DNA of 18,246 bases from a virus (taxonomy: Duplodnaviria; Heunggongvirae; Uroviricota; Caudoviricetes). The notes beneath the pieces were generated by a model. The model worked only from the letters and a program-made list of their open reading frames with translations. It searched no databases and was not told where the DNA came from. Shown here in pieces: positions 3,875 to 18,246 of the stretch. The stretch is taken from positions 1 through 18,246 of IMG/VR virus record IMGVR_UViG_2609459834_000002; one strand, given 5' to 3'. The position numbers and the translations under genes are program-made. Position 1 is the first letter of the stretch, and the number at the start of each line of letters is the position of its first letter.

Positions 3875-3892
3875 TATTGACCTCCAGAAAAG

Positions 3893-3964: not shown

Positions 3965-3993
3965 ATCCTAACCAGATTTTTTGAAAAATGCAA
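3965..3993 (-). promoter_or_regulatory. Candidate late promoter (pR'-like) with presumed qut region
   Basis: Minus strand: -35 TTGCAT (plus 3988-3993), 17-nt spacer, -10 TAGGAT (plus 3965-3970), directly downstream of the Q stop at 4025. Hexamers are only moderate matches; the position is what supports the call. Confidence 0.3.
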
Positions 3994-4024
3994 GAATCAT
4001 GTCGCTATCTTCGGCGAAAATCAT

Positions 4025-4777: not shown

Positions 4778-4790
4778 GCTCGTTCTCCAC

Positions 4791-5786
4791 TTACGCCAGT
4801 ACGCCAATTGCCAGCGCACGATCGATAAAACGAAATATCAGCTCCAGCTGGGAGCCATACTTCTCTTCAAATGCCACGGTATCCGCATGCAGCTCGTCGT
4901 GATGCTTTCTGCACAAAGGCAACACAAAGAGGTCATGCGCTTTTGTTCCCATTCCACCCTGACCGTGACCTATCAGGTGGTGGGGATCATCAGCAGGCTT
5001 ACCACAACATGCACACGGCTGTGTCTTAACCCAGCGCGTGTACTTTTCATTAACCCAGCGGCGACGTTTTGGGCGTAACATAAAAGACTCCGGCGACTCC
5101 GGATCCACTTTCAGCGCCAGCACCTTTTTCGCTTTATCCTGGATAATGCTGGTGGCAGGAACCGAAGGCACAAGGTCACTCTCCCGGGTGACAGACGGCA
5201 CAACAGGCTTCGGTAATCTCAGTGCCTTACGGGCTGCACTTTCCGGTAAGGCATCCGCCAGATCATTACGAACCAGCCACCAACACAGTTCCGGCATTGT
5301 CACAACGTGACTGTCATCAAAACCGAGATCCCGACGCACAACAGACAACACCCAGCGGGCACAGTTATCCGTTGCCATTGATTCCAGCCGTTCCGTGAAC
5401 TGATCGCGCAGCTGGTTATCGCAGTGCCAGCACAGACGGATTGCGCCCGGAGCGTGTCGCATTGTGGTCATGTTCTCGCTGTGCCAGTCGGAATGAGGCC
5501 ACTGGCAGCCTTTTTCACGAAGTAACCAGCTTTCAAGACATTCCACGCCACCAGCACGACGGATCACTGCCTCATTGCGGAACACGGCCCGAACGGCAGG
5601 ATCATCCGCCAGCGGTTGTGATGCCGCCGGAACGGCACCACTGGCGAAAGATGAATAACGTTCCGGCTCAGGCTCCAGCAGAACACGCCCCTGCATAAAC
5701 AGGGGCATCAGCTCTGAACCTGGCCTGAACAATACGATCCCCATACGCGGGGCAATTTCAGGGGTCAGTAGTGCTCTCACGGTCAC
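4791..5786 (-). CDS. DUF968-family protein (YdfU-like) with HNH-like C-terminal motif
   Basis: 331-codon ORF. C-terminus has CACCGKPADDPHHLIGHGQGGMGTKAHD...CRKHHDELH. Recalled as resembling the E. coli Qin-prophage gene upstream of its Q. The first codon at 5786 is GTG directly after the KilA-N stop, so the start is uncertain. Confidence 0.75.
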   Translation of the reverse strand: MTVRALLTPEIAPRMGIVLFRPGSELMPLFMQGRVLLEPEPERYSSFASGAVPAASQPLADDPAVRAVFRNEAVIRRAGGVECLESWLLREKGCQWPHSDWHSENMTTMRHAPGAIRLCWHCDNQLRDQFTERLESMATDNCARWVLSVVRRDLGFDDSHVVTMPELCWWLVRNDLADALPESAARKALRLPKPVVPSVTRESDLVPSVPATSIIQDKAKKVLALKVDPESPESFMLRPKRRRWVNEKYTRWVKTQPCACCGKPADDPHHLIGHGQGGMGTKAHDLFVLPLCRKHHDELHADTVAFEEKYGSQLELIFRFIDRALAIGVLA

Positions 5787-5787
5787 C

Positions 5788-6597
5788 TCAATGAACGGTA
5801 TCGAGCAGCTTTAACAGCTCAGGGAATCGGGATTCGAAGAAATGCGGCTGCGTCTCGCGCGGATTTGCAGGACTGGTGATGTTCTTGCCGAACATGCAGC
5901 CTTTCGCTGTCAGCGACCAGAATTTTTTGATGTTGTTAATCGCAGTGCGGCTGTATCGTTCACGTTGTTCAACGATCCCCAGCTTCGCCATCTGGTGATA
6001 TGCCTGATTAGCTGTCAGGCGGATACCATACTGCTTCAGCAGTGCACTCAATGATAGCGTGGGGCGGCTTGAGCCATCAGGCGCGTCAGCAGGAGCATCA
6101 ATGGCATAGCGTGGTGCCAGATTCGGTAAGCCAACAGCCTCCTGGAGTTTCTGACAGGCACCAAGCACAGATGAGTTAGACAGGTTTAATTCCCGACGCA
6201 TAAAGTCCAGCAGAATCACACCAGCCTGCATCTTGTCAGCAGCCTGCCCGGATAATTTTTCCGGTGCGCTGGTTACCATATCGAAAGTACGGATCACCTT
6301 CAGATGGAATGACGGGCTGATCCACATTGCATAGGCATACACCAGTTCCTTGCAGACATACGTTCCCCGTTCATTTCCCCCATGAATCACACTCACCGGG
6401 TCAACACCCAAATTCTGGGTGTTGGTCAATTCATGAACAAGCTCAACAGTTTGTTGGCTGGAAAGAAACTTTCCCGGCTCCTTGGTTCTGGCATTTGCAC
6501 CAGATGCTACTGCTGCGCGATGCAGATCGTTCAGGCTGTAACGCCCATAAGCATCACGACGAACTTCAATACCATCAATGACCATCAGATTATTCAT
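5788..6597 (-). CDS. KilA-N domain protein (antirepressor-like), second paralogue
   Basis: ATG at 6597 overlapping the RusA stop. N-terminal MVIDGIEVRRDAYGRYSLNDLHRAAVASG is a KilA-N signature; the 170-aa C-terminal domain is unassigned. Confidence 0.8.
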   Translation of the reverse strand: MNNLMVIDGIEVRRDAYGRYSLNDLHRAAVASGANARTKEPGKFLSSQQTVELVHELTNTQNLGVDPVSVIHGGNERGTYVCKELVYAYAMWISPSFHLKVIRTFDMVTSAPEKLSGQAADKMQAGVILLDFMRRELNLSNSSVLGACQKLQEAVGLPNLAPRYAIDAPADAPDGSSRPTLSLSALLKQYGIRLTANQAYHQMAKLGIVEQRERYSRTAINNIKKFWSLTAKGCMFGKNITSPANPRETQPHFFESRFPELLKLLDTVH

Positions 6598-7006
6598 ACT
6601 TCGTTTCTCCTCTTAATCGGGCGGCTGCCCCCGCCGTTTTCTCGTACTTACTGATAGTGATCTCGACCTTCCCTTCCGGGATAACCGGTCCCCACTCCAC
6701 CAGCATTCTTTTCACCTGACTGTCGTCTTCCCACACACCCGCGTGGGTCAGGGCGTCAAACAGCGCCTTGTTATAGTTGTCCAGATCGCGGATCCGGTTA
6801 TCCGGAGGAAACAACACGATCTCCACTGAAGCAGGTGCCGACGTTGGTTTCGGCAGACGACGTAACTGCTCAACTATTGCTGCGCACGCCGCGCTCTGAA
6901 ATTTTCGCCCCGCCGCGCTTATCAGGCTCTTACCAGCAAATGCCCCTTTATTGGGGTGTCGCCAGTACGTGTTCACGCTGGGCGGGAAAGGCAGGATCAG
7001 CTTCAT
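6590..7006 (-). CDS. rusA: Crossover junction endodeoxyribonuclease RusA (Holliday junction resolvase)
   Basis: 138 aa; N-terminal MKLILPFPPSVNTYW and RDLDNYNKALFDAL are RusA signatures. ATGA-coupled to the upstream gene. Confidence 0.9.
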   Translation of the reverse strand: MKLILPFPPSVNTYWRHPNKGAFAGKSLISAAGRKFQSAACAAIVEQLRRLPKPTSAPASVEIVLFPPDNRIRDLDNYNKALFDALTHAGVWEDDSQVKRMLVEWGPVIPEGKVEITISKYEKTAGAAARLRGETKYE

Positions 7007-7329
7007 ACTTTCAGGCCCCTCTCATGTAACCAGTGGGTTGCACGCAGCCTGGCGTTTTCCTCACCGGCAAGCAGTGAGCGGATAATCCCGACCGCCTCGC
7101 TGTCGTCGTCCTTCACCGCGGTATGAAGAGTGATACCCCGGGCCACGCCACGCTTTATCGTGATGACGCCTTTTTTCTCCAGTGCGCGAAGATGTTCCAC
7201 CGCTGCATTCACTGAACGGTATCCCAGCATGGTTGCCACCTCCTGATTGGTTGGCGGGAAGCCACGTTCTTTCTGGTAAGAAATCAGCATATCCAGCACC
7301 TGCTGCTGGCATTGAGTTAACGTCGTCAT
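7003..7329 (-). CDS. LexA-type N-terminal DNA-binding domain protein (no peptidase domain)
   Basis: 108 aa; LTQCQQQVLDMLISYQKERGFPPTNQEVATMLGYRSVNAAVEHLRALEKKGVI resembles the LexA winged-HTH. No S24 protease motifs. ATGA-coupled on both sides. Confidence 0.6.
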   Translation of the reverse strand: MTTLTQCQQQVLDMLISYQKERGFPPTNQEVATMLGYRSVNAAVEHLRALEKKGVITIKRGVARGITLHTAVKDDDSEAVGIIRSLLAGEENARLRATHWLHERGLKV

Positions 7330-7979
7330 GCCGCCATCTCCCTGACCAGTTTTTCCGCCTGCTGGCGAACCTGCGCCAGAAACGCCTCACCACATGCCTC
7401 AAGTTCATCACGCCCGATGTAGCTGATTGCCGGTCCCTTCCAGGTCTTGTCGAAAACAGCAATAGCACCAGCGAAGAAAGCGCCTGTCGGCACCTGCTTC
7501 TCGTCCTTCGGTATAAACCAGGCAGGCAGTTCAAAACCAATACGCCCGCGAATAAAAGCAATATGATCTGCATCTTCCGGCCACCACACTTCGCTGGTGG
7601 CCGCTTTGATCAGGAAAACATAGCGCCCGCCCTTATCACGCATGGCACTGGCATGTTTCATGATGTAACGCATGCCGGTGATGTATTGCCCCTCATGCTG
7701 ACTGGCGCGGCTGTATGGGGGATTACCAAAGGCAGCACCTTTAAGCTCCGCAAGACGTTCTGACCAGTCATGCGCCAGCGCGTTATCTTCCGCCGTGTAA
7801 TACGCGGCACATTTGGCGTTATCACCGTCAGTAAACAGATCCAGAACAAACGGGCCAAACAAGGTGTTAATTCCCCAGAAAATGTTATCCGGCGTGCGCC
7901 ACTGATCGCCCACTTCCTTCAGTTCATGGGCTGGTTTGTTCCGCAGTTCCACCAGCGCCTGGCAATATTTATTACTCAT
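7326..7979 (-). CDS. Phage DNA N-6-adenine methyltransferase (Dam family)
   Basis: Start assigned to ATG at 7979-7977 (MSNKYCQ...), which overlaps the upstream TAA as TAATG. Contains the catalytic NPPY motif (FGNPPYS). The track start at 8012 is an in-frame upstream extension. Confidence 0.85.
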   Translation of the reverse strand: MSNKYCQALVELRNKPAHELKEVGDQWRTPDNIFWGINTLFGPFVLDLFTDGDNAKCAAYYTAEDNALAHDWSERLAELKGAAFGNPPYSRASQHEGQYITGMRYIMKHASAMRDKGGRYVFLIKAATSEVWWPEDADHIAFIRGRIGFELPAWFIPKDEKQVPTGAFFAGAIAVFDKTWKGPAISYIGRDELEACGEAFLAQVRQQAEKLVREMAA

Positions 7980-8467
7980 TAAGCCCCCACGTAATTCCCT
8001 GAGAGATACCACTCTTCACCCGATGCAGCGCGCTTGCTGCTTTTCCGTAAGCACCGCTCACGACGCGCCAGAAAATTGTTTCGTTCTGGCTGGGAGTGGC
8101 TTTCACGGAATGCCGCCATCCACACGGTTGCAGCACGACGGTATAAGCCCCTTGACTCCAGTTCTTCAGCCTGGCGGGTCAGGCACAAAATCACCCGGGG
8201 GTCGTTAGTGCCGACATAGAACTTGCGCACAGGTCTGGTTTCACGAACTGGTTGTGGTTCCGGCTCCTGCGCTCTCTCAGTCAGGCGCGGGAAATGTCTG
8301 CGTGTATCCCCTTCACAACGGTGAGCCACACGCCCACTCTGACGTAACTTGCTTGCTGACTGCAGAACGCGCTGCCGTGAGTAACCAGCAAAAGCATCCG
8401 CAATGTCTCCGGAAGTACACCCCGGATGGGCTTCAATGAATTTCTGAACTTCATTCAAAAGACTCAT
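7979..8467 (-). CDS. Hypothetical regulator, PerC/ANR-like (tentative)
   Basis: Start at ATG 8467-8465 (the track begins at GTG 8473). C-terminal LESRGLYRRAATVWMAAF...RRERCLRK resembles PerC/ANR-family proteins as recalled; N-terminus looks like a small HTH. Assignment from memory only. Confidence 0.45.
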   Translation of the reverse strand: MSLLNEVQKFIEAHPGCTSGDIADAFAGYSRQRVLQSASKLRQSGRVAHRCEGDTRRHFPRLTERAQEPEPQPVRETRPVRKFYVGTNDPRVILCLTRQAEELESRGLYRRAATVWMAAFRESHSQPERNNFLARRERCLRKSSKRAASGEEWYLSGNYVGA

Positions 8468-8469
8468 GA

Positions 8470-9288
8470 TCACCCCCTGAATCCTGCCGGGATCTGGCTG
8501 TAGTCCACGTTGTCGTAACTGGCTTTGAAGTACGGGTCCTCGCGTCTGGCTGCAGATACCGCAGGAACTTCCCAGGATTCTTCGAAATGACGATCCGGAC
8601 CAAAGAACGTGACAGCCTGTTTCACAAATTGTGTGCCGCTGTTACCCATCGCAGATACCCAGCCCGCGTAGCGTTTCACACCTTCCAGCATGGTTTCGGG
8701 GTTTACTCCCTCATTCAAACGGGCTTTCCAGGCTTTGAAGGCTGCAGATTTTGAATTGCCACCAGCACGTTTGGGATATGCCAGCCATGCCTGCTCAAAC
8801 TCCGGAGAGTATTCCGGTCGGTTTGAACGAACTCGCACGGACTCATCAACTGATGCACCAACAGCTATTGGTTCATTGACTGGTTCTTTGACTGGTTCAA
8901 AAGAGTGACTGGTTCTGGGTGAATCTCCTGCACTACCCCCTGGTGCAACTCCTGCACTACCTGGTGAATTTGCTGCACCAGATAGTGAATTATTTGCACT
9001 ACCCCCTAGTGAATCTCCTGCACCATCCAGATGAAGGAGATAGATATTACTTGAGTTACCTTTTTCACCTTTCCGGGTGACTTTTTTTACCAGCCCGGAC
9101 TCACAAAGGGCCGCAATATGATTCATCACAGAACGTTTGCTAATCTCGCACTGGTCAGCAATATGCTGATAGCTGGGCCAGCACTCACCCTGATCGCTGG
9201 CATTATCAGCCAGCTTGATCAGAACCAGTTTTCGCAATGGATTACCCACTCGAATTTTCATCGCTTTAACCATCAGCTCCATACTCAT
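8470..9288 (-). CDS. Phage replication initiation protein (N-terminal HTH domain, repeat linker, C-terminal domain)
   Basis: 272 aa. N-terminal HTH (PLRKLVLIKLADNASDQGECWPSYQHIADQCEISKRSVMNHIAALCESGLV), a Gly/Ser/Ala-rich linker encoded by tandem DNA repeats, and a basic C-terminal domain. Sits at the lambda O position after the cro/CII-like genes. Confidence 0.7.
   Translation of the reverse strand: MSMELMVKAMKIRVGNPLRKLVLIKLADNASDQGECWPSYQHIADQCEISKRSVMNHIAALCESGLVKKVTRKGEKGNSSNIYLLHLDGAGDSLGGSANNSLSGAANSPGSAGVAPGGSAGDSPRTSHSFEPVKEPVNEPIAVGASVDESVRVRSNRPEYSPEFEQAWLAYPKRAGGNSKSAAFKAWKARLNEGVNPETMLEGVKRYAGWVSAMGNSGTQFVKQAVTFFGPDRHFEESWEVPAVSAARREDPYFKASYDNVDYSQIPAGFRG
8877..9028. repeat. Iteron-like tandem repeat array inside the replication gene (candidate phage origin)
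   Basis: Five tandem 21-24-bp repeats at 8917-8940, 8941-8961, 8962-8982, 8983-9006 and 9007-9028, consensus tGGTGAATctcCTGCACTACCccc. Three copies of TGACTGGTTC at 8877, 8889 and 8907. A moderately AT-rich stretch follows at 9029-9090. Confidence 0.5.
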
Positions 9289-9509
9289 GCTGCACCTCCG
9301 AGATGCTTCATGTTTTTTCCGGAGCGAAAGGCTATAAGCGGCATACTGACGCGGTAATTACGGCCCAGCGGTTCACAAACCACCTTCTGACATTCACGGT
9401 CAACCAGGCTAACACGTAGAACATGCCCTGCAGGCGTGGTGTACCACTGACCGGGGCGAGGACAACGGAAAGTCTGATTGGTAAATCGTTTGAAAATATT
9501 CCGGATCAT
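9285..9509 (-). CDS. Hypothetical protein (74 aa), translationally coupled between Rha-like and replication genes
   Basis: ATG at 9509 overlaps the Rha stop (ATGA) and its stop overlaps the replication-gene ATG at 9288 (ATGA). No recognised domain. Confidence 0.5.
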   Translation of the reverse strand: MIRNIFKRFTNQTFRCPRPGQWYTTPAGHVLRVSLVDRECQKVVCEPLGRNYRVSMPLIAFRSGKNMKHLGGAA

Positions 9510-10063
9510 TTGCGCCCCCTTACCTCTGAAGAGTTCAGCGACGAATGAATAAGACGGGCAAGAAATGCCGCATCGTTAATTCGGTCATACAGACTTACAG
9601 CCAGAGGTGATTCAGCTTTTTCCAGCATGGGATAAAGCTGCTGCAACCAGACCTGATGAATTGATGAAATGTAGGAATAGAGAACGCTGGCGTTATGTGC
9701 AACGTCGCTCGGTACAGAGGGCTTTGAAAGCTGTTTCTCCATCTGGTTAAAGGCATTGATGTATGCCTCTTTGAACTGGGCAGCACGTTTCCCCGTGAAA
9801 CCCATAGCAAGAAACGCAAAGCCGTCGCGGGTTATTTGATAGCAAGGAAGTTTGCGAGTACCGCCGTTGGGCTGGCGTACCAAAATTGATGTCTCCGCAA
9901 AATTGCGGGCACAAAACTCTGGAGAACAATCCAAAATGCGGATCTTTTTCAGAACATCGTCATGACGTTTAGAGAAGAAGTCAGCAACAGCCAAAGAAGA
10001 TGTAACAGCCTGACCATCAACGATGGCAATTTCAGGTTGAGAGAGGGTTGGGAGAGTAGTCAT
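9506..10063 (-). CDS. Phage regulatory protein, Rha family
   Basis: Product from the internal ATG at 10063-10061 (MTTLPTLSQPEIAIVDGQAVTSSLAVADFFSKRHDDVLKKIRIL...YQITRDGFAFLAMGFTGKRAAQFKEAYINAF) matches the Rha N-terminal domain. The track ORF extends in frame to 10669; that extension is treated separately in findings. Confidence 0.75.
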   Translation of the reverse strand: MTTLPTLSQPEIAIVDGQAVTSSLAVADFFSKRHDDVLKKIRILDCSPEFCARNFAETSILVRQPNGGTRKLPCYQITRDGFAFLAMGFTGKRAAQFKEAYINAFNQMEKQLSKPSVPSDVAHNASVLYSYISSIHQVWLQQLYPMLEKAESPLAVSLYDRINDAAFLARLIHSSLNSSEVRGRK

Positions 10064-10665
10064 GGTGACAGCCCCGGTAGTCAGTTTTTTAGAAAACTCA
10101 CCACATGGGACGCCAATCACAGAGGTGGTGAGACGTACAGGGTTGGCGTTACCGGAGACTACCGAACCCGGCCCGACCGAAGTCGGCCCTGTACGCCCCA
10201 CCATAATTTGGGCGTAGCAATGCTCATGACACGAAAAAACCGCATGAGCGCGGTTATGCTCAGTAATCAATTTCAGGACGCCAATCCCGGCACCCGTTTT
10301 ATAAGGTGCCTGAACAGTGTAACGTCCCGGAATGGCAGAATCAATGTGCTGGTGGTCCTTCACACTCAACAAAATCACGCCTGAATTTCCACAAAGGACT
10401 AAAGCACTCATGCGGGTAGTCTTTGCGAAGATAGATAACGCGCTGTGTTTCTGGCTCCCAACGAATAACATGAACATAAAGTCCTCTTCCGTCACGAAAC
10501 CAGCGGTTAAGTTCCTGCACAACTCGCCCCCCACAGTCAGGTAAAGTTCTCTGTGGTTACTTACAGCCAGGTGATTTGGTAATCTGCATTCATGCCGTAA
10601 CAACAGGTGTTCAGCGACGCTGACCACCTGTTGTTGCGACAAACGGTTATTTGCCGTTAAACTGT

Positions 10666-11229
10666 TCATGCGTTAGTTTCTCCACAGACACAAAACGCCA
10701 CGACGCCCGGAGCTGCACACTCGCGGGCGTCACTCTTTTCTGGAGCGCAAAAGATTTTGTAGACCAGTGCTGCATGCTCCTGGAGCTTCGAAATTGACAG
10801 ATACAACTCATCATTAATTGCTGTCTGCTCGTGTGGCTCCACTACCCCATCTTCGATTGCCGAACGAATCTGCTTTGAGTAACTCCCGATCTGTTCGATG
10901 ACTTCCAGCAGGCGCTGGTTTATATCGGCGTTCTCTACTTCCTCAATTTCAGGAAGCGATACAAACACCCCACCAGCAGACTGTGCGACAGCATCCGCAA
11001 TGTAGTGAGTGCCAGCCGCGCGCTGTAAAATCATTGCCCATCCCAGCGGGAAAATCTGATCGCCATCTGCACGAAGGCGGTTGAATAAAGCGTTCTCTGT
11101 TACATCCAGCCACTCAGCAGCTTCAGCGTAACCCCCCGGCAACGCCGCGATAGTTTTTCTGACAGCTTTCACGTACCACTCAGGCTGTTTTTCTACTTTC
11201 CAGTGATGCTTACCCACGGTTAGCCTCAT
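10666..11229 (-). CDS. CII-like / YdaT-like regulatory protein (tentative)
   Basis: 187-codon ORF immediately downstream of the cro-like gene on the same strand, the CII position. No strong RBS at ATG 11229; an in-frame GTG at 11217 has GAGG upstream. Family assignment is by position and weak recollection. Confidence 0.45.
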   Translation of the reverse strand: MRLTVGKHHWKVEKQPEWYVKAVRKTIAALPGGYAEAAEWLDVTENALFNRLRADGDQIFPLGWAMILQRAAGTHYIADAVAQSAGGVFVSLPEIEEVENADINQRLLEVIEQIGSYSKQIRSAIEDGVVEPHEQTAINDELYLSISKLQEHAALVYKIFCAPEKSDARECAAPGVVAFCVCGETNA

Positions 11230-11260
11230 CGTTCTGTGGTTAAAAATTGAAGGTGTTCTG

Positions 11261-11461
11261 TTAATCTTTCGGATAGATATCCGGTCTTAAGTCAGATTTC
11301 GTAATTGCACCTGACGTGCATTGCTCAAGTTTTTTAGCCAGCACAAAACTGGCTTTTTTATAACCATTGAAAACCAGCCGTAAGTAGCCTGGTGTTGAGC
11401 CAACTTTTCCGGCCAACTCGCCCTGCTGTTCTTTGGTTAAAGAGTCCCAATACGCTTTCAT
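11261..11461 (-). CDS. Cro-like HTH regulator (YdaS-like)
   Basis: ATG at 11461-11459 with GGAGG RBS about 10 nt upstream. The 66-aa product MKAYWDSLTKEQQGELAGKVGSTPGYLRLVFNGYKKAS...LRPDIYP is divergent from the repressor gene. The 167-aa track ORF is an upstream extension running through the operator region. Confidence 0.7.
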   Translation of the reverse strand: MKAYWDSLTKEQQGELAGKVGSTPGYLRLVFNGYKKASFVLAKKLEQCTSGAITKSDLRPDIYPKD

Positions 11462-11464
11462 ACA

Positions 11465-11536
11465 ATATGTACCTCCGATATACATATTACATGATTGAGA
11501 TGAACCTTCAAGATACTTGTACCCTATCGGTACAAA
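11465..11536. promoter_or_regulatory. Immunity operator/promoter region (OR-like; pR leftward, pRM-like rightward)
   Basis: Two operator-like inverted repeats: 11465-11487 ATATGTA-N9-TACATAT and 11518-11536 TTGTACC-N5-GGTACAA. Candidate pR on minus: -35 TTGAAG (plus 11504-11509) and -10 TAATAT (plus 11482-11487). The cI-like ATG at 11552 has no convincing RBS, suggesting a leaderless or weakly initiated mRNA. Confidence 0.5.
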
Positions 11537-11551
11537 GGTTTTAATTTCGTT

Positions 11552-12226
11552 ATGAAAACAGTCCATGACATCCGGCGGTCTAACGCCAGAAAACTGAGAG
11601 ATGGTGTTGGCGGGAATTCTTCCTTTGCCACCATGATTGATCGCGAGCCAACCCAGACCAGCAGGTTTATGGGGGATGGTGCTACTAAAAATATCGGTGA
11701 CAGCATGGCACGGCACATCGAAAAATGTTTCGACCTGCCTGTCGGATGGCTTGATCAAGAACACCAGACAACAAACATCACAAAAAAACCTGATGTTTCA
11801 ATCACTAACAAACAAATAACGTTAGTCCCTGTCATATCATGGGTACAGGCCGGAGCATGGAAAGAAGTTGGCTATTCTGAGGTTGATTTGAGCACAGCAG
11901 AAACTTATCCCTGCCCTGTACCCTGTGGCGAAATGACTTATATCTTGCGGGTGATTGGTGATTCAATGATTGATGAGTACCGCCCGGGAGACATGATTTT
12001 TGTTGATCCCGAAGTCCCTGCCTGCCACGGTGACGACGTTATTGCATTGATGCACGATACAGGCGAAACCACCTTTAAGCGGTTGATAGAAGATGGAACA
12101 CAGCGTTATCTCAAAGCATTAAACCCAAACTGGCCTGAACCTTACATTAAGATCAACGGTAATTGCTCTATAATTGGCACAGTGATTTTCTCAGGAAAAC
12201 CAAGAAGATACAAAATAAAGGCCTAA
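11552..12226 (+). CDS. CI-like prophage repressor (HTH plus LexA-like S24 peptidase domain)
   Basis: 224 aa. C-terminal domain has the S24 autocleavage-fold motifs (VIGDSMIDEYRPGDMIFVDPE). Divergent from the cro-like gene and followed by a strong terminator. Confidence 0.85.
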   Translation: MKTVHDIRRSNARKLRDGVGGNSSFATMIDREPTQTSRFMGDGATKNIGDSMARHIEKCFDLPVGWLDQEHQTTNITKKPDVSITNKQITLVPVISWVQAGAWKEVGYSEVDLSTAETYPCPVPCGEMTYILRVIGDSMIDEYRPGDMIFVDPEVPACHGDDVIALMHDTGETTFKRLIEDGTQRYLKALNPNWPEPYIKINGNCSIIGTVIFSGKPRRYKIKA

Positions 12227-12239
12227 TCAATATTTATAA

Positions 12240-12260
12240 CCTGCTTCGGCAGGTTTTTTT
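12240..12260 (+). terminator. Rho-independent terminator after the repressor gene
   Basis: CCTGC-TTCG-GCAGG hairpin followed by T7 (12254-12260), 14 nt after the cI-like stop. Confidence 0.7.
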
Positions 12261-12264
12261 ATAC

Positions 12265-12297
12265 TTGACAATGTACCCTCGAGATACATAATGTATC
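12265..12297 (+). promoter_or_regulatory. pL-like promoter with overlapping operator (OL-like)
   Basis: -35 TTGACA at 12265-12270, 17-nt spacer, -10 ATAATG at 12288-12293. The spacer holds a 19-bp operator-like site ATGTACC-N5-GATACAT (12271-12289), overlapped by the perfect palindrome GATACAT-A-ATGTATC (12283-12297). Confidence 0.5.
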
Positions 12298-12575
12298 TAA
12301 AAGAAACATGTCACAGGCAAGATTAAACAAAATTTGGTTGTAACACGGCGTATGGCACATGCGTCGTTAGCGGTCTGGGGACGTTAAAGGGGACAATCCA
12401 CTCCTTGCTCGGGCAAACAAACCAGGTAGCCGGAATGTGCAAGTCAATGATGATGCTGATAAGACGCCTAACCAGCGTGGCGGTTCGGTTTGACACCTGG
12501 GAAGAGACCAGGGTGCAACGATGAGGGCATTTATGGAACCGCGACAAAGTGTGGTGCCGTAACTGGCTAAGTGCT

Positions 12576-12596
12576 CTCAGCGTTGTGGTGAATGCG
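12576..12596 (+). repeat. 21-bp direct repeat, copy 1 (CTCAGCGTTGTGGTGAATGCG), followed by a GC hairpin
   Basis: Differs from the copy at 13204-13224 by one base. Followed by hairpin GCGCA-GGCTGA-TGCGC at 12594-12609. Lies in the roughly 450-nt leader between the pL-like promoter and the first small ORF. Confidence 0.6.
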
Positions 12597-12739
12597 CAGG
12601 CTGATGCGCGAAAGACATTGCAGCTATTGCGGAAAAGAGCTGTTCGGCGGGGCAATTAAACGCCCGTATCTGGAGGTTAAAGAACAAAATGAAAGTCCAG
12701 ATTTTAAACAATAACTGTGAAGTCGTTTGGGCGTAAAAC

Positions 12740-12946
12740 ATGACCGCGCGTAGACCAAGGGAGGAAAAAGTGGGAATAGTTAGAAATCAAGCAGATATAT
12801 TGAAAATCAGCTCTGAATTGCTTGGAGTTTTGAAAAGTGAGCTCACCGCACATGGCATCGAGCCCACTGACGAAAATTTAAGTTGGGTTTTGTCGATTAT
12901 TCAACAATCACTCAAGCCCAGCCTCAGCAAACTTTTTATCGAGTAG
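12740..12946 (+). CDS. Hypothetical small protein (68 aa) at the N-gene position; possible N-like factor or moron product
   Basis: ATG at 12740 lies 3 nt after the stop of a 15-codon upstream ORF (12689-12736, MKVQILNNNCEVVWA, GGAGG at 12672-12676). An in-frame GTG at 12770 has a strong GGGAGG RBS. N-terminus MTARRPREEK is mildly Arg-rich. Sits in a visibly AT-rich island. Confidence 0.4.
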   Translation: MTARRPREEKVGIVRNQADILKISSELLGVLKSELTAHGIEPTDENLSWVLSIIQQSLKPSLSKLFIE

Positions 12947-13099
12947 TGCTTCGAACTTATCGTAAAGCTTGCTTATGTCGTCTATCGGGTTTTCTGACGT
13001 ACTGTAATTTTTATCTGATGTCATGGCAGCAGTCTGATATGCAGTGTGAGTCTTAACCGATAGTTGGAATAAATAAAGAATTTTTTCTTCTTTGGTCAT
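12908..13099 (-). CDS. Hypothetical small protein (63 aa), convergent with and overlapping the 12740-12946 ORF
   Basis: ATG at 13099-13097 with AAGGA RBS 7 nt upstream. Product MTKEEKILYLFQLSVKTHTAYQ...DKKFAEAGLE. Its 3' end overlaps the convergent ORF by 39 nt. No family recognised. Confidence 0.4.
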   Translation of the reverse strand: MTKEEKILYLFQLSVKTHTAYQTAAMTSDKNYSTSENPIDDISKLYDKFEALLDKKFAEAGLE

Positions 13100-13203
13100 G
13101 ACTATTTCCTTCTTGGCTATATGAAAACACCAAGATACCACCGAGCCTGAAGTGGTGAAAAGACAGGCACATAACAGCTAAGTATTTTCAACCAGAGAGA
13201 ATC

Positions 13204-13224
13204 CTTAGCGTTGTGGTGAATGCG
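13204..13224 (+). repeat. 21-bp direct repeat, copy 2 (CTTAGCGTTGTGGTGAATGCG), followed by a short GC hairpin
   Basis: Near-identical to 12576-12596 (20 of 21). Followed by TGCG-GCTCAG-CGCA at 13221-13234. Marks the right boundary of the AT-rich island. Confidence 0.6.
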
Positions 13225-13355
13225 GCTCAGCGCACGCGGGTTAAGGTTGAGGCTGACAGTCGACCTTCTGTGGATACCCACCCGCCTGGTGTGCAACCTT
13301 CGCCAGGCACCGGGAGGCACCCGGCACCACAACTTTATGCTGTGTGTAGTCCTAG

Positions 13356-13400
13356 CGGTACCAGCTTGTACCATTGCTTCCGGCTGGTACCGTCCTTTTT
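13356..13400 (+). terminator. Terminator-like hairpin (tL1-like candidate) upstream of rdgC
   Basis: Perfect 10-bp inverted repeat CGGTACCAGC (13356-13365) / GCTGGTACCG (13383-13392) with a 17-nt loop, followed by TCCTTTTT (13393-13400). The loop is long for a canonical intrinsic terminator. Confidence 0.4.
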
Positions 13401-13565
13401 ACAAAACAGAGAAGAGCATCACCGGACGACGGGCTCATAACCCAATCCACCCGGGCAAAAAGAAAGCGGTCTCTGCAAGCCGCCGACCAATGCAGGTGCC
13501 CTTCTCTGTTGTGTATGGAGAAACTAACTTTTTAGCGCCGGTGCAGAGGCGTTGAGGAACCGAGA

Positions 13566-14483
13566 ATGAACAATCCGTTTTTCAAAAATATGTTGGTGTA
13601 TCGCATTAGTCGCGATTTCACCATCAACCAGGAAGAGCTGGAACAGCAGCTTGAACTATTTCGCTTCACTCCATGCGGTAGCCAGGATATGGCAAAAACC
13701 GGTTGGGTATCACCACTTGGTCAGCTGTCAGATCGCTTGCATCACACTGTCAATAATCAAGTGTTGTTGGTTATTCGCCGGGAAGAAAAAATACTGCCAT
13801 CTCCTGTCATTGCTGAAGAACTGCGCAAGCGTGTGGCGCGTCTGGAATCCGATCAGGGGCGTCGCCTCAAAAAAACTGAGAAAGATTCGCTGCGTGATGA
13901 AGTGTTGCACTCCCTGCTTCCTCGGGCGTTCTCCAAAAACTCGACTGTTAGTTTGTGGATCAACGTCACAGACGGTCTGATCATGGTTGATACAGCCAGC
14001 GCTAAACGTGCCGAAGACTCACTGGCCCTGCTTCGTAAAACTCTCGGTTCTCTCCCGGTGGTACCGCTGACTATGGAAACGCCGATCGAACTAACTATTA
14101 CCGACTGGGTTCGTTCCGGTAGTGCCCCTGCTGGCTTTAGCCTGGGTGATGAAGCCGAACTGAAAGCTATTCTTGTAGATGGCGGTATTGGACGCTTTAA
14201 AAAACAGACTTTGGTCAGTGACGAAATTCATGTGCATCTGGAAGCTGGCAAAGTAGTTACAAAGCTGTCTATCGACTGGCAACAGCGCATTCAGTTCGTT
14301 CTTTGCGATGACGGCAGCATCAAACGCCTTAAGTTCTCTAATGAGATTACAGAACAAAACGACGATATCTACCGTGATGATGCGGCTCAGCGGTTCGACG
14401 CTGACTTTGTTCTAATGACCGGCGAGCTTATCTCTCTCATTAACGGATTAACAACCTCTCTCGGCGGCGAAGCCAAGCGATAA
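13566..14483 (+). CDS. rdgC: Recombination-associated protein RdgC (prophage-encoded homologue)
   Basis: 305 aa with GAGGA RBS 8 nt upstream. Matches recalled E. coli RdgC along its length ([123 protein letters not shown]). Confidence 0.9.
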
Positions 14484-14562
14484 ACACCAGGCAGCAATTA
14501 CCCCATAAGCATGGGTTGGGTTGCTGCACTCCAAATCTGGCGAAGGTTGGTTCGGATGGCAG

Positions 14563-14817
14563 ATGAATCATATCGAATTTATTGAGAAGAACGTCAGGGA
14601 AATCCTTATAAAACAAGGCTTTTCTTCTTCAGTAGCGCAGGGGGGGGCATGGCAAGCGATTGATTTATATAAGCGCATGTCACAAGCCAGTAAAAAGGGT
14701 GCAATTTTTGATGACGTGATGAGGCATGCGAAAGCATGGGCAGATAAACAGGTTTCGAAAACTGAAGTCACGAAAAGTAAACGCAATCAACCTAAAAACC
14801 AAGGTGGTCTGTTTTAA
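14563..14817 (+). CDS. Hypothetical protein (84 aa)
   Basis: Track ORF 14521-14817 begins at TTG; trimmed to ATG 14563 (MNHIEFIEKNV...). Weak RBS. Basic C-terminus. No family recognised. Confidence 0.45.
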   Translation: MNHIEFIEKNVREILIKQGFSSSVAQGGAWQAIDLYKRMSQASKKGAIFDDVMRHAKAWADKQVSKTEVTKSKRNQPKNQGGLF

Positions 14818-14869
14818 ATATTCAGGCCAATAAGTTTGCGCGGTGCAGCGCGCCAATATGGAGAAAACC

Positions 14870-15196
14870 ATGAGCTACATTCAGACATTATCCGGTAAAA
14901 AATTTAACTACCTGACCGCCACAATCGACGATATCGATGTAGAGGATATCGCGACGGCGCTTTCCAACATCTGTCGATTCGCTGGGCATCTCCCAGAGTT
15001 CTACAGCGTGGCTCAGCACTCTGTGCTTGTAAGCCAGATTGTGCCGCCAGAGTTCGCCTTTGAAGCGCTGAAATTCGATGACTTCCAGATTGTCCACTAT
15101 GGCGGTTCTGAGGATTACGCGAAAGGTTATATCGACTGCCAAAACAACTACAACAAAGCTCTGACCGCCGCTGGCATTGGCGTGAAGGGGAAGTGA
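14870..15196 (+). CDS. HD-domain-like protein (YfbR-type 5'-nucleotidase fold), short and with the HD dyad altered; possibly degenerate
   Basis: ATG at 14870 with GGAG RBS 6 nt upstream (MSYIQTLSGKKF...). Motif CRFAGHLPEFYSVAQHS resembles the first metal-binding region of HD hydrolases, but the expected L-H-D-A motif reads EALKFDD (His replaced by Phe). The protein stops at 108 aa, against roughly 180-200 for intact HD domains. Confidence 0.45.
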   Translation: MSYIQTLSGKKFNYLTATIDDIDVEDIATALSNICRFAGHLPEFYSVAQHSVLVSQIVPPEFAFEALKFDDFQIVHYGGSEDYAKGYIDCQNNYNKALTAAGIGVKGK

Positions 15197-15197
15197 G

Positions 15198-15672
15198 ATG
15201 GCGGAGCAAACCATTTTAGACATGTGCTGCGGTTCCCGCATGTTCTGGTTCAACAAGCAGGACACCCGCGCCGTGTTCACTGATATCCGCGCCGAAGAGC
15301 ACGAGCTGTGCGACGGTCGCCGCCTGGTTATCAGTCCAGACCTGATTGCCGACTTTCGTTCACTGCCGTTCGCTGATTCTTCTTTTCCGGTTGTGGTGTT
15401 TGACCCACCGCACTTGGAGCGCGTTGGCCAGTCTGCCTGGATGGGTAAAAAATACGGGCGACTGAACAAAAAAAACGTGGCGCTCTGACTTACGCGCCGG
15501 TTTCAAAGAAGCGTTTCGGGTGCTGTGGCCACGCGGCGTACTTATTTTCAAATGGAACGAAACACAAATCCCAGTGAGCCAGATTCTGGCGCTTACAGAT
15601 GTGAAACCTGCAATTGGCCAGCGTACCGGGAAGAACGATAAAACCCACTGGATTATTTTTGTGAAGGACTAA
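15198..15672 (+). CDS. Small SAM-dependent DNA amino-methyltransferase (DPPH motif) interrupted by a +1 frameshift at an A8 tract
   Basis: Frame 0 (15198-15488, 96 aa) carries motif I LDMCCGS and motif IV FDPPH and stops at TGA 15486-15488. The +1 frame is open from 15466 to the TAA at 15670-15672, ending 3 nt before the next ATG. The only region open in both frames (15466-15485) contains the A8 run at 15468-15475. One fewer A would give a single product of about 156 aa. Confidence 0.6.
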
Positions 15673-15675
15673 CTC

Positions 15676-16230
15676 ATGACAACTAAACACCCGGCGCACG
15701 GTCCTTTATCCCTCGATCGCCTGCACCAGATACGCGAACACCTGCAGCATGATACCCAGTACTCAAACGGCGGGAACAGAGCTTATATTCTCGCTGATAT
15801 GTTGAAGGTGATTGATGAGGTGCTGGCATCGAGGAACGCAGAGCCAGTATTGCCAGATGAAAAGCCGATGCCAGAAGCGTCGAAAATGCATGCAATAGAC
15901 GCTGTAGCTGCAATCGCAGAGGTCAGAGGATGGAACGCCTGCCGCGCCGTCATGCTTAAGGCTGGCAACTCTCCGGTAACTCAGGATGGTTACGTGCTGG
16001 TCCCGAAGAAACTAACCGCTGAGAACGGCGCAAAGAGTGTGCTGTCCGGTGAGTTTTCAGAAACGAAATTTATAAACTGCCCAGAGTGTTTTGGTGATGA
16101 TGATTGCGAAACCTGCGACGGCAGCGGAAGAATTGAAATCACCGTTCCTGTCACATGGACGACCATCAAAGCTATTTGGGCTAAAGGTGTCGAGCATTTC
16201 GCAGCAGCACCGCAGCAGGAGAATGTATAA
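15676..16230 (+). CDS. Hypothetical protein with C-terminal CxxC...CxxCxGxG zinc-finger-like motif
   Basis: 184 aa, tightly packed between neighbours. Motif CPECFGDDDCETCDGSG resembles a DnaJ-type zinc-finger repeat. Otherwise unassigned. Confidence 0.6.
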   Translation: MTTKHPAHGPLSLDRLHQIREHLQHDTQYSNGGNRAYILADMLKVIDEVLASRNAEPVLPDEKPMPEASKMHAIDAVAAIAEVRGWNACRAVMLKAGNSPVTQDGYVLVPKKLTAENGAKSVLSGEFSETKFINCPECFGDDDCETCDGSGRIEITVPVTWTTIKAIWAKGVEHFAAAPQQENV

Positions 16231-16804
16231 CGTGAACAATTTAATGATCGACCTTGAGTCCATGGGCAAAAAACCGAATGCCCCTATTGTCTCCATTGGT
16301 GCCGTATTCTTCGATCCGCAAAGCGGTGATCTTGGTCAGGAGTTTTACACCGCCGTTAATCTTGAAAGCGCTATGGAGCAGGGAGCTGTGCCGGATGGTG
16401 ACACTATTCTGTGGTGGTTAAGACAAAGCTCAGAAGCACGATCAGCAATCTGTGTTGATGATGCGATGCCGATATCGTCTGCCCTATCTGAACTGAGCCA
16501 TTTCATTAATCGGCATTCTGATAACCCAAAATATTTAAAAGTTTGGGGCAATGGAGCTACTTTCGACAACGTTATATTGCGCGGCGCATATGAGCGCGCC
16601 GGCCAGCTTTGCCCGTGGCAATTTTGGAACGATCACGACGTCAGAACCATCGTCACATTAGGCAGAGTTGTGGGTTTCGATCCAAAGCGAGATATGCCAT
16701 TCGATGGGGTTGCACATAACGCACTGGCCGATGCGCGACATCAAGCAAAATACGTGTCCGCGATCTGGCAGAAGTTGATTCCGGCCACCAGCAGAGACCT
16801 GTAA
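16223..16804 (+). CDS. DnaQ-like 3'-5' exonuclease (DEDD family)
   Basis: Exo I motif LMIDLESMG, later H-x4-D-type motif (GVAHNALADARHQAKY), about 190 aa. Start is ambiguous among ATG 16223, GTG 16232 (best-spaced relative to AGGAG at 16217-16221) and ATG 16244. Track ORF 16091-16804 is an in-frame upstream extension. Confidence 0.8.
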   Translation: MYNVNNLMIDLESMGKKPNAPIVSIGAVFFDPQSGDLGQEFYTAVNLESAMEQGAVPDGDTILWWLRQSSEARSAICVDDAMPISSALSELSHFINRHSDNPKYLKVWGNGATFDNVILRGAYERAGQLCPWQFWNDHDVRTIVTLGRVVGFDPKRDMPFDGVAHNALADARHQAKYVSAIWQKLIPATSRDL

Positions 16805-16842
16805 TTTTCCCTGGGTGCAGCCAGGTTGTATGGAGAATGTCT

Positions 16843-17115
16843 ATGAATACTTTGTTTTTACTTATGGCTGAGTTCAACACGCCTAACATCGAGCTGTCAG
16901 CTGTATGCCAAAAGTATTTCGGTATGAGCCCTAACACAGCAGAAGCGAAAGCAAATGCCTGTCAGTTGCCGATCCCGACTTATCGTGTAGGAACATCACA
17001 GAAAGCGAAGCGCTGCATCAACATTCAGGATCTTGCTGAGTATATAGACCAGCGGCGTGAAGAAGGCAGAATTGAGTGGGAAAGGGTCAGAACGAACAAA
17101 CAGAAAAATAGTTGA
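16843..17115 (+). CDS. PrtN-like small DNA-binding protein (tentative)
   Basis: Start at second ATG 16843 (GGAG 7 nt upstream). MNTLFLLMAEF...CQKYFGMSPNTAEAKANACQLPIPTYRVGTSQKAKRCINIQDLAEYID resembles the pyocin-activator PrtN family as recalled. Followed by a terminator. Confidence 0.5.
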   Translation: MNTLFLLMAEFNTPNIELSAVCQKYFGMSPNTAEAKANACQLPIPTYRVGTSQKAKRCINIQDLAEYIDQRREEGRIEWERVRTNKQKNS

Positions 17116-17141
17116 GTTTCACACAGATAAAAAAAGAAAAA

Positions 17142-17157
17142 CCCGCCAGATGGCGGG
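17142..17157. terminator. Rho-independent terminator between convergent genes (strong for minus strand, weaker for plus)
   Basis: CCCGCC-AGAT-GGCGGG hairpin. The minus-strand RNA is followed by a U-rich run (plus-strand A-rich 17128-17141); the plus strand has only CTTT after the stem. Confidence 0.6.
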
Positions 17158-17180
17158 CTTTCAAAAAGCACCAGCTATGA

Positions 17181-17354
17181 TCATGCTGCCTTGCGACGAC
17201 GAAGCTTACCCTGCTGCTCTTTACCAGAGACAATAGCGTGAGTGAACGCGTTAGGAGCAGCCTTCATCAGAACTTCAACAGCAGCACCCATACCTGCGAA
17301 TGCTTTCATTGTGTCGAACTTAACCTGTGGCTTGGTTGCTTTTTGATCTTTCAT
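17181..17354 (-). CDS. Hypothetical small basic protein (57 aa), absent from the ORF track
   Basis: ATG at 17354-17352 with GGGAG RBS 8 nt upstream; stop at 17183-17181. Product MKDQKATKPQVKFDTMKAFAGMGAAVEVLMKAAPNAFTHAIVSGKEQQGKLRRRKAA. Terminator about 20 nt downstream. Confidence 0.5.
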   Translation of the reverse strand: MKDQKATKPQVKFDTMKAFAGMGAAVEVLMKAAPNAFTHAIVSGKEQQGKLRRRKAA

Positions 17355-17549
17355 AGAAAACTCCCGAGACGATAAGGGCGCCTCTAACCTCTTAGTTAAA
17401 GTTAGCTTGTCCAGCCAACTTGTGCCAATCGGTTCCTCCGATTGGTGACATCGTTTTCAGTAGTGCGAATACATAACGACTGTCCCAGATGTACCTTTAA
17501 GGTAATCCGGATGGATATCCTACAATCTGTAGACACTCGGCGTCTACAT

Positions 17550-18083
17550 CTATTGTGCGAATTTAAGAAATGTCTCTTGCAGATTATCTGTGGCTGTAGA
17601 CATTACGTAGCCACACTTTTCCATACAAAAACCGAACGACTCATAAAATGGCCGCAATTCAGGAACTGGTTCAATGATTTGAACAACCTCACACTCGACA
17701 GCCTTACAAAAAACAAAGGCACTCATTAGTGTGAGCAAAACCATTCGCCCTTTTAGTGGGTGTGATTCATCTTCCCTTGAGAACCTTTCAACAATATGGA
17801 TGCGAAAGATTTTATCTTCAACCCCGTAAACACAAATTGCCGCCCCTGAAGGAATCCCCTGCACTACTCCTTGCTGAACAAGTTTGATGCAAAATTCATA
17901 CTTGTCATCAGAATTACCATAGGCACCGAGCATATAGTCCCACTCAAGCTCGCCATAACCACCACAGAGGATCTTGTAATCTTCATCACTGATCGGGCCA
18001 ACTGCGAGAGGCAACCCCACATGGTCAATAACTAACTGAATGTTGTTACGAACAGATTGACCTATCTCGTCTAAAGTGAGCAT
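17550..18083 (-). CDS. Hypothetical protein, possibly GNAT-like (acyl-CoA N-acyltransferase) fold; function unassigned
   Basis: 177 aa with GAGAGG RBS and a perfect TATAAT (plus 18117-18122, read on minus) upstream. C-terminal ELRPFYESFGF resembles the GNAT beta-bulge/C-terminal region, but no clear Q/RxxGxG/A acetyl-CoA motif was seen. Confidence 0.45.
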   Translation of the reverse strand: MLTLDEIGQSVRNNIQLVIDHVGLPLAVGPISDEDYKILCGGYGELEWDYMLGAYGNSDDKYEFCIKLVQQGVVQGIPSGAAICVYGVEDKIFRIHIVERFSREDESHPLKGRMVLLTLMSAFVFCKAVECEVVQIIEPVPELRPFYESFGFCMEKCGYVMSTATDNLQETFLKFAQ

Positions 18084-18246
18084 TAGAGCCTCTCAAGCGG
18101 AACGGCGAAAGACCCCATTATACCTATTCCCGCCATGCAATGCCTGGTAAGAGTTGCGTATTAAATTAAAAACATCGGGTCCCCAATAGGCCCCCATAAA
18201 ACACACAACACCGCTATTTCTCTGTACAATCCGTCCTATCGAGCAT

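Follow-up and report, generated by a model that had tools for sequence, protein, structure and literature searches.

What is encoded by the long interval in front of rdgC in a lambdoid prophage early region? The question is raised by a stretch of 18,246 nucleotides of viral DNA (Caudoviricetes; positions 1 to 18,246 of the IMG/VR virus record IMGVR_UViG_2609459834_000002; the window hereafter), whose content is the immunity and early region of a lambdoid prophage. In the original prediction, positions 13225–13565 were described as a GC-rich, structured stretch without a convincing open reading frame (ORF), which could be a tL1-like terminator region subject to antitermination, or a processed or structured RNA. 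The latter proposal was supported, since the stretch holds a homologue of a curated small-RNA family with helices supported by covariation. It is rather probable that 13177–13400 specifies a prophage small RNA (sRNA) which belongs, as a diverged member, to the STnc100/PasD family, a terminated RNA that would be driven from the promoter pL and would gate rdgC. Comparative analysis established the RNA homology of this element, its predicted fold, its terminator-like 3' end, its non-coding status and its modular, mosaic anatomy.

Identification of an STnc100-type element

It was found that the Rfam covariance model of STnc100 (RF02076) aligned end to end in the window, with model positions 1–206 of 206 placed on 13180–13402 (+); a scan of this kind had been suggested as a check of the original prediction. 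The score of 43.2 bits corresponded to an E value of 1.1e-7 in a scan of the region and of 1.4e-6 in one of the entire window, where this was the sole such match. It was obtained with E-value reporting and is invisible at the gathering threshold. GGUGAAU and the 22-nt CACCGGGAGGCACCCGGCACCA of the window were identical to the STnc100 consensus. The invariant core of the family was present, with GGUGAAU at 13215–13221 and the P5 hairpin CCGGGAGGCACCCGG abutting CACCA within 13308–13329; of 96 distinct sequences of the superfamily, 80 had the identical P5 loop. The terminal hairpin of the model (about positions 170–206) was aligned onto 13355–13393 plus five U residues. Sub-threshold STnc100 matches of 33–40 bits were also found at the homologous position in SfII, ST64B, phiES15, RCS47 and P1. 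Other Rfam families gave only chance-level matches in 12200–13650 at E values up to 10, and none was found for the second structure downstream (hairpin 2, see below).

A covariance model of our own, R1, which was made from the subfamily alignment, gave 171.8 bits on the window and 40–72 bits on classical STnc100 loci. The variant of phage Ayreon type was detected by neither R1 nor Rfam at E < 0.01, despite having kept helix P1, the terminator and hairpin 2, and is regarded as a third, more distant class. On these alignments, the element is a sub-threshold subfamily in a new operon context, accompanied by a conserved stump of a second unit.

The prophage sRNA family STnc100 has eleven copies that are transcribed in EDL933, and Northern blotting confirmed one of them (PMC5331693). 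Another view of the family comes from the copy EcOnc27, which lies immediately 3' of stx2B and whose RNA was crosslinked to Hfq (PMC4104026, PMC12711010, PMC12370729). PasD1 and PasD2 of enteropathogenic Escherichia coli (EPEC) are Hfq-dependent, visible on Northern blots, and have partners in RIL-seq (PMC8550237). Discrete, Hfq-dependent transcripts of about 160–240 nt that have RNA partners are known from relatives of the element (PMC5331693, PMC4104026, PMC8550237). PasD and STnc100 were described as structural homologues in a 2026 preprint, according to which the Pas sRNAs still lack an elucidated function (bioRxiv 10.64898/2026.05.13.724894).

Fold of the element and compensatory changes

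The stretch was indeed rich in G+C, with 0.58 at 13200–13399, 0.57 at 13300–13499 (hence 0.57–0.58 over 13200–13500) and 0.566 for 13225–13565, compared with 0.38–0.50 in the flanks and 0.496 in the whole window. When 13225–13565 was folded against shuffled sequences, the + strand gave z = –2.9 (0/100) and the – strand a weaker z = –2.1 (1/100). The conserved module begins upstream of 13225, at about 13137–13177. The leader at 12298–12600 was rejected as a structured RNA, because its structure alone was not significant (z = –1.5). For the full leader plus element of the Ayreon type z was –2.8, for which element and terminator were responsible.

The core is a five-helix junction of the STnc100 type at 13210–13333 (+), with a minimum free energy (MFE) of –58 kcal/mol and z = –2.6. 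It consists of the closing helix P1 (13210–13218 with 13325–13333), the P2 hairpin (13222–13237), P3 (13238–13241 with 13280–13283), the P4 hairpin (13284–13291 with 13301–13308) and the P5 hairpin (13310–13314 with 13320–13324), all on the + strand. The palindromic CACCGGG/CCCGGCA motif that had been noticed earlier corresponds to the last of these, a 5-bp hairpin CCGGG-AGGCA-CCCGG at 13310–13324.

The subfamily set was obtained by scanning viral contigs with a pattern of the 5' motif, which gave at least 119 loci. Among the matches listed there were 44 distinct cores, belonging to the E. coli, ST64B, phiES15 and P1-like subtypes and three others. These cores shared one plan: helix P1, AAU, P2, P3 (GGGN/NCCC) around a variable insert, P4, and an invariant P5 abutting the 3' strand of P1. 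In these 44 cores, 96.5% of the cells were paired, compared with 34–48% when partners were slid, and changes on both sides were seen at five pairs (59 cells). Examples were U-A to C-G, twice in P4 and also in P1, and U-A to G-C in P3. In the alignment of the 96 distinct superfamily sequences fitted to R1, 95.8% of the cells were paired (38–44% when slid), and 28 of 31 pairs changed on both sides, which was equalled by 0 of 500 shuffles. This alignment leans towards structure because it was fitted to the model; the slid controls still leave a large margin. Covariation over homologues, another check suggested earlier, thus found helices that keep pairing, and the multi-helix junction is kept by compensatory changes.

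Directly 5' of the core is the stem-loop P0 (13177–13189 with 13197–13209, +), in which GCUAAGUAUUUUC pairs with GAGAGAAUCCUUAGC at 12 of 13 positions around a 7-nt loop. P0 adjoins the 5' side of helix P1 and can extend into its first bases; the fold of 13130–13215 gave z = –4.0. A P0 helix of other sequence was found in the P1-like, ST64B and phiES15 subtypes and in the loci L088, L079 and L059, with –15 to –26 kcal/mol and z from –2.5 to –6.3. Its strands covary between the subtypes, being GUAAGAGCAUUCU/AGAAUGCUCUUUC in the P1-like one and, again complementary, GAUAAGAGUUUUU/AGAGAACUCUUAUC in ST64B and AUGAAGCGCAUUUC/GGAAUGCGCUUCAU in phiES15.

Further upstream, ACCACCGAGCCUGAAGUGGU followed by GAAAAGACAGGCACAUAAC (13137–13176, +) is kept in two E. 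coli variants, phiES15 and the Nissle prophage, with the pattern ACCACC-N2-GCCUGAW-GUGG, then AAAAG(A)CAGGC; it was also seen in L009 at about 2885–2920. In the Nissle prophage this segment precedes a plain terminator, and the core is missing. The segment can form either of two small hairpins, with no covariation to favour one over the other. A pseudoknot between the P5 loop (GGC) and an upstream GCC was considered and rejected: two compensations failed, and a GCC within 30 nt was present in just 19 of the 80 sequences with an AGGCA loop.

The overlapping reading frame

An ORF of 111 codons at 13220–13555 (+), homologous to the coding sequence (CDS) 'ymfH' of e14 and to SfII_35, overlaps the element. 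It could be taken for a real, Arg/Pro-rich small protein of YmfH type, in favour of which are the existing CDS annotations and the fact that the frame is open in many E. coli copies. However, in 66 variants of the homologous locus the frame from the shared ATG had lengths between 7 and over 200 codons, with 7 codons in ST64B, 27–71 in the P1-like subtype, 41 in phiES15 and 42 in e14. Even near-identical E. coli copies had frames of 17, 28, 56 or 73 codons, with premature stops and frameshifts, and in many others there was an in-frame fusion to the next gene. Neither this ORF nor that at 13213–13440 belonged to a Pfam or PHROG family. Because the frame is unconserved, is interrupted by stops and frameshifts and has no family, it was judged not to be a gene. 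In addition, the terminator lies inside it, and conservation tracks the helices rather than the codons. It is extremely improbable that a protein is made from this frame, and the view that the stretch holds no convincing ORF stands.

Protein annotations lie over the RNA module in e14 (ymfH, L008 2564–2875), in SfII (SfII_35, L002 3534–3872) and in the prophage of uropathogenic E. coli (UPEC) 26-1, where RefSeq has a 'frameshifted hypothetical protein' (L010 3064–3374). In the literature on ymfH and on sRNAs of ST64B, nothing relevant was found.

The predicted terminator

At 13355–13400 (+) there is an intrinsic-terminator-like hairpin, with a 12-bp stem (13355–13366 with 13382–13393), a 15-nt loop, CC, and UUUUU at 13396–13400. 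It contains the 10-bp perfect inverted repeat with T-run of the original prediction, whose arms are at 13356–13365 and 13383–13392 and whose T-run is at 13396–13400. The stem had –20.9 kcal/mol and z = –4.5, and none of 200 shuffles was as good. It forms in the MFE structure and the centroid alike, and in neither was a riboswitch-like alternative to it seen. The loop is unusually large, and a simple terminator scan missed 13355–13400 because the loop is longer than 8 nt. SfII, e14 and Ayreon have kept the terminator, with a stem that ends at most 1 nt from the U-run. Presumably, it forms the 3' end of the small RNA and a barrier before rdgC. The term 'tL1-like terminator' was thus fair for one part of the stretch, because a hairpin and U-run are present there and conserved in relatives, whereas the antitermination that went with it was unsupported.

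A transcription barrier acting only in cis might account for the stretch, that is, a tL1-like terminator or insulator which shields rdgC and the recombination genes from leaky or early transcription out of pL, with the upstream structure functionless as free RNA. Such a barrier would agree with the conserved hairpin and U-run, and with the Nissle-type prophage, in which a plain terminator without the core takes the same position before hairpin 2 and rdgC. Moreover, in other phages the late leaders consist of terminator-bearing tandem units, which could plausibly insulate the lysis genes. But the core shows compensatory changes in phages whose arms have nothing else in common, it occurs without a terminator in P1, and its relatives, which depend on Hfq and have RNA partners, accumulate as discrete RNAs (PMC8550237, PMC4104026, PMC5331693). 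A pure barrier is therefore considered unlikely.

A second structure, truncated copies and mosaicism

Directly after the terminator stem, hairpin 2 (13396–13520, +) has long lower stem arms at 13400–13418 and 13497–13515 and a branched top, with z = –3.4. In SfII and e14, its lower stem has 25 perfect pairs and includes the U-run of the terminator (z = –8.1 and –7.4, respectively). It was also found in ST64B (z = –4.5) and in the Nissle 1917 prophage, and is conserved in phages of E. coli and Salmonella. Its pairing survives A-U to C-G, A-U to G-C and G-C to A-U changes, which are few independent events. By these comparisons, hairpin 2 is conserved in its own right. Its 5' arm ACAAAACAGAGAAGAGCAUC aligns with the 5' strand of P0, and its 3' arm (…CUCUGUUUUGUGGAGAAAC) with the 3' strand of P0 plus GUUGUGGUGAAU. 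Being a paralogue of P0 and the 5' strand of P1, hairpin 2 is read as the 5' stump of a further unit.

A mosaic joint lies at 13405–13456, where homology of the SfII/e14/Ayreon type stops at 13456 and homology to the Nissle-type rdgC cassette runs from 13405. In Ayreon (L001), UPEC 26-1 (L010, about 3345–3365) and e14 (L008), a small hairpin was observed after hairpin 2 and before the downstream start codon, with the compensatory variants CGACCUUGCAGGGUCG and GCCCCUACGGGGGC; the window has the leader of the rdgC cassette instead.

A truncated copy of the element was found at 12576–12612 (+), at the left edge of an island of small genes. It comprises the 5' strand of P1 GUUGUGGUG, GAAU and a P2-like hairpin GCGCAGGCUGAUGCGC, and its 9-nt P1 strand has no local partner. 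Positions 12576–12596 and 13204–13224 form a 21-nt direct repeat with 95% identity. In phage SKA5, the same stump is directly 3' of pL. The island between the stump and the full copy carries a gene of phrog_15476 (12740–12946, +), a gene of phrog_2605 (12908–13099/13141, –) convergent with pL transcription, and the remnant of a small zinc-finger gene. The likely start of the phrog_2605 gene is an internal Met by its PHROG match, giving 63 aa as annotated in SfII. It had been claimed that more than 800 nt of the early-left transcript is untranslated; this tally leaves out the two small genes of phage protein families in the island, so that the interval from pL to the stretch is not untranslated throughout. 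The remnant was noticed as a 40-codon ORF at 12592–12714 (+) with CSYCGK, whose 3' end region matches that of a small gene with the label 'ClpX C4-type zinc finger'. In the prophages of UPEC 26-1 (67 aa) and Nissle 1917 (121 aa), this gene comes first after pL. Phage Ayreon has no island, and a more distant variant of the element is at the same place.

In the leaders from Q to the lysis genes, classical STnc100 units are arrayed in groups of two to five. Tandem arrays in which three to five copies recur about every 250 nt were seen in L133 (2316–3364, –), L169 (4368–5467, +), L144 (1714–2349, +) and L137 (3137–3751, +). Such arrays fill 1–2 kb of noncoding late leader, from the Q-side genes to holin/lysozyme or a NanS-like esterase gene. 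The locus in the window looks like a broken tandem array, into which the cassettes (the island and rdgC) would have been joined at the conserved GUUGUGGUGAAU joint. The known-family membership, the separate module at 13396–13520 and the truncated copy beyond the island were all overlooked in the original prediction.

With three joints in or near the element (the 21-nt repeat on either side of the island, the stump at 12576–12612 and the joint at 13405–13456), and with arrays and partial copies being common, the element might be a DNA-level recombination 'linker' between phage modules that has no function as RNA. A patch of homology, however, needs no compensatory changes, whereas P1, P0, P4 and hairpin 2 keep their pairing as their sequences change. 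The strand-specific features (G-U pairs and the U-run) fit the + strand, and recombination at the element is more readily taken to follow from its conservation. We regard a linker without RNA function as very improbable.

Operon context and the possibility of antitermination

In the window, the gene of the S24-type repressor cI (S24 peptidase by Pfam; 11552–12226, +) is followed by a terminator at 12238–12255 (+) and by a putative strong promoter of pL type, TTGACA-16-CATAAT, at 12265–12292 (+), which matches the consensus at 11 of 12 positions. The pL promoter block is also present in Ayreon and UPEC 26-1. The first long gene 3' of the element is rdgC (13566–14483, +; PF04381, E = 2e-113), with a Shine-Dalgarno sequence GAGGAA at 13554–13559 (+). 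From the positions of repressor, pL and rdgC, the stretch belongs to the early-left transcription unit, as had been assumed, and pL at 12265–12292 is presumed to be the source of the early-left transcripts that enter the element.

Relatives were found in the repressor-controlled early operons of SfII, SfV, ST64B, phiES15 and e14, and in the ban operon of phage P1. The order is cI, leader, terminator, P0 and core, terminator, hairpin 2 and sb37 in ST64B; repressor, gp10, element and kil in phiES15; and the ymfK repressor, ymfJ/ymfI, the element annotated as 'ymfH' and xisE-intE in e14. In P1 and RCS47, the element lies between upl and tciA in the C1-controlled ban operon, and the terminator is absent. 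In L106, a promoter TTGACA-N18-TACATT about 10 nt 5' of helix P1 is followed by the element, the terminator, hairpin 2 and the first gene. The element is always downstream of the repressor gene in the early operon, or in the P1 ban operon. The P1 operon also holds three tRNA genes and a dicF-like region, and in L017 an apparent tRNA gene 3' end (GGTTCGATTCC) was seen about 100 nt upstream of the element. An exact-pattern scan of genome contigs found five species representatives, all Escherichia or Shigella, a count which says little because prophages are strain-specific. The query 13150–13620 matched 2775 of 5426 complete E. coli genomes, some of the matches being partial, e.g. at the rdgC-proximal end.

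In many subtypes, a string (A/G)UGCUCU(U/C)(U/A) was observed just 5' of helix P1 (L006/L007 at about 2487–2500, L088, L043, L017, and 12572–12580 of the window); it resembles boxA of rrn and nut sites. In the full copy of the window the string is degenerate, AAUCCUUAG, and paired in P0. With respect to a lambda-type nut site, no N-like ORF and no such Pfam or PHROG match was found from pL to the element. A put site was searched for by comparing the HK022 immunity region with the window by blastn and Rfam, which gave no match beyond chance; a put identity was rejected for this reason and for the different architecture.

These observations bear on whether the element acts in cis on its own polymerase, by put- or nut-like processive antitermination or as an attenuator in N-less lambdoid phages, so that early-left transcripts could be extended past its own and later terminators. 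The element of L106 and the stump of SKA5 are the first to be transcribed from pL, as is putL of HK022 (PMC9378689), and the ORFs, Pfam and PHROG show no N-like gene in the pL-to-terminator interval. In both of its settings the family occupies the leader of a long operon for which read-through is required, and the invariance of P1, P5 and GGUGAAU suggests a fixed ligand. The 3' strand of P0, UGCUCUUU/UGCUCUC, is boxA-like in several subtypes and at the stump (12572–12580). On the other hand, in the full copy this string is P0-paired and degenerate, no alternative pairing disrupts the terminator stem, which is present in both MFE and centroid, and no second copy was found behind pR in the window. 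Transcription of the relatives evidently ends at their own terminators, and they build up as short RNAs. Classical copies are far from the promoter, after stx2B and in arrays (PMC12370729), and there is no likeness in sequence or architecture to put, which has about 70 nt and two stems (PMC9378689). Cis action of this kind is quite improbable, and the antitermination of the original prediction was not supported: neither an N-like gene between pL and the terminator, nor similarity to HK022 put, nor a copy downstream of pR was found.

Other features of the window

The rightward operon lies on the – strand and comprises CII-like, Ash/Rha, replication, Dam, RusA, Q, holin, endolysin and Rz genes. 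In the window's own late leader, between Q (4025–4819, –; PF03589) and the holin gene (3151–3537, –), no STnc100 copy was found. Across the window, only C4 antisense RNA (82 bits) and isrK (60 bits) reach the Rfam gathering thresholds. They adjoin each other at 10121–10309 (–), inside a mechanically called ORF (9506–10669) whose product has Ash and Rha domains, and the pair was also seen in phage Ayreon (L001 922–1110). The C4/isrK pair resembles a secondary immunity module of the immI-like (c4/ant) type, which would belong to the rightward early operon. A weak match to the Pseudomonas rnk leader at 17130–17201 (–) had 31.9 bits (gathering threshold 55; E = 0.049) and is probably due to chance. 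The early-left operon also encodes a protein with an Rv2179c-like 3'-5' exoribonuclease domain (16091–16804, +) and a PrtN-like protein of the pyocin-activator family (16837–17115, +).

Proposed mechanism

By analogy with its relatives, the element most likely functions as a small RNA that is terminated and probably Hfq-dependent, with its terminator gating rdgC. When the repressor is lost, transcription from pL (12265–12292) would enter the element, and most polymerases would halt at the terminator. A structured RNA of roughly 190–230 nt with a U-tail would be released, which, like its characterised relatives EcOnc27/sRNA103 and PasD1/2, would probably be stabilised by Hfq and pair in trans with mRNAs. 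The same terminator would restrict read-through into rdgC and the genes beyond. In read-through transcripts or long precursors, the duplexes of P0 and hairpin 2 would be likely sites of cleavage or stabilisers, and processing there would free the small RNA and set the 5' end of the rdgC message.

Several observations weigh against an STnc100-type small RNA. The score of 43.2 bits is below the curated gathering threshold of 47 bits. In the MFE structure of the window, P3 is swapped for local hairpins at 13243–13267 and 13270–13281; relatives favour P3. The core of phage P1 runs to the tciA start with no terminator, so the terminator is not obligatory in the family. Hairpin 2 of the window carries two mismatches (A x G and A x C), which are explained by this hairpin being a chimera, its 5' arm being of one type and its 3' arm of the other, with compensatory differences between the types. 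Classical STnc100 members are in late leaders downstream of Q, not behind pL. Because pL is repressed in the lysogen, the window copy may be silent under conditions in which relatives were detected, and the only candidate for a promoter of its own, AAGACA-17-TATTTT at 13160–13188, is weak (8/12, under the scan cut-off). Finally, P1, P5 and GGUGAAU are strictly invariant although the arms next to them vary freely, which exceeds what a plain Hfq-dependent sRNA needs and hints at another ligand.

One may speculate that, besides a trans role as Hfq-dependent sRNA, the invariant P1/P5/GGUGAAU platform binds the transcribing polymerase or an elongation factor and controls read-through of its own terminator, which we consider improbable. 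If true, the element would be an RNA-based device for early antitermination or attenuation in N-less lambdoid phages, in which the arms set specificity and P0-type duplexes are processing sites. The anatomy of the unit (P0, invariant platform, free arms, terminator and stump of the next unit) accounts for the breaks of phage mosaics at this sequence. It also offers mutants for probing the ligand of the platform and the N-less passage of the first early-left terminator. With the STnc100-type element at this locus, one of the most frequently annotated enterobacterial sRNA families gains an unannotated branch just under the Rfam threshold, in repressor-controlled early-left leaders and in the P1 ban operon, and the protein annotations of ymfH in e14 and SfII_35 should become an RNA gene.

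Comparison with known systems

The element resembles STnc100 (EcOnc27/sRNA103 of enterohaemorrhagic E. coli) in the full-length model alignment, in GGUGAAU and CACCGGGAGGCACCCGGCACCA, in a closing helix around hairpins and in a 3' terminator, and both are carried by lambdoid prophages of enterobacteria. They differ in P2, which is GCGGCUCAGCGCACGC in the window and CCCCCUGUGCGGAGGGG in STnc100, and in the P0 stem-loop and long-range P3 of the window element. Moreover, the latter lies behind pL and the repressor gene, while classical copies are in the late leader between Q and the lysis genes or after stx2B (PMC12370729, PMC4104026). PasD1 and PasD2 of EPEC E2348/69 are likewise prophage-encoded, Hfq-dependent RNAs, of 80–240 nt and with many RIL-seq partners, and by published description they are structural homologues of STnc100 (PMC8550237; bioRxiv 10.64898/2026.05.13.724894). 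PasD, in contrast to the window element, lies in late regions, with a linkage to Q and lpxR.

Lambda 6S RNA, which ends at tR', and StxS are promoter-proximal terminated transcripts from pR'. They share with the element the arrangement of a short terminated RNA at the start of a long operon, and L106 has the order promoter, element, terminator. However, the promoter in the window is of pL type and repressor-controlled, and there is no sequence relation. We know of no Q-type antiterminator that acts at the window element.

Like putL/putR of HK022, the element lies just 3' of pL in some relatives, and the early-left leader has no N-like gene. The put sites have about 70 nt and two stems, with copies behind pL and pR (PMC9378689), whereas the window has one full copy, on the + strand only, of about 190 nt with five helices and a terminator of its own. 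The difference from DicF is that there is no relation in sequence or structure and that processing of the window element is inferred only. DicF is a small RNA that is cut from the dicB operon transcript of prophage Qin. Both are prophage small RNAs within a repressor-controlled early operon that are, or would be, freed by processing, and the ban operon of phage P1 holds a dicF-like region together with an STnc100-like element.

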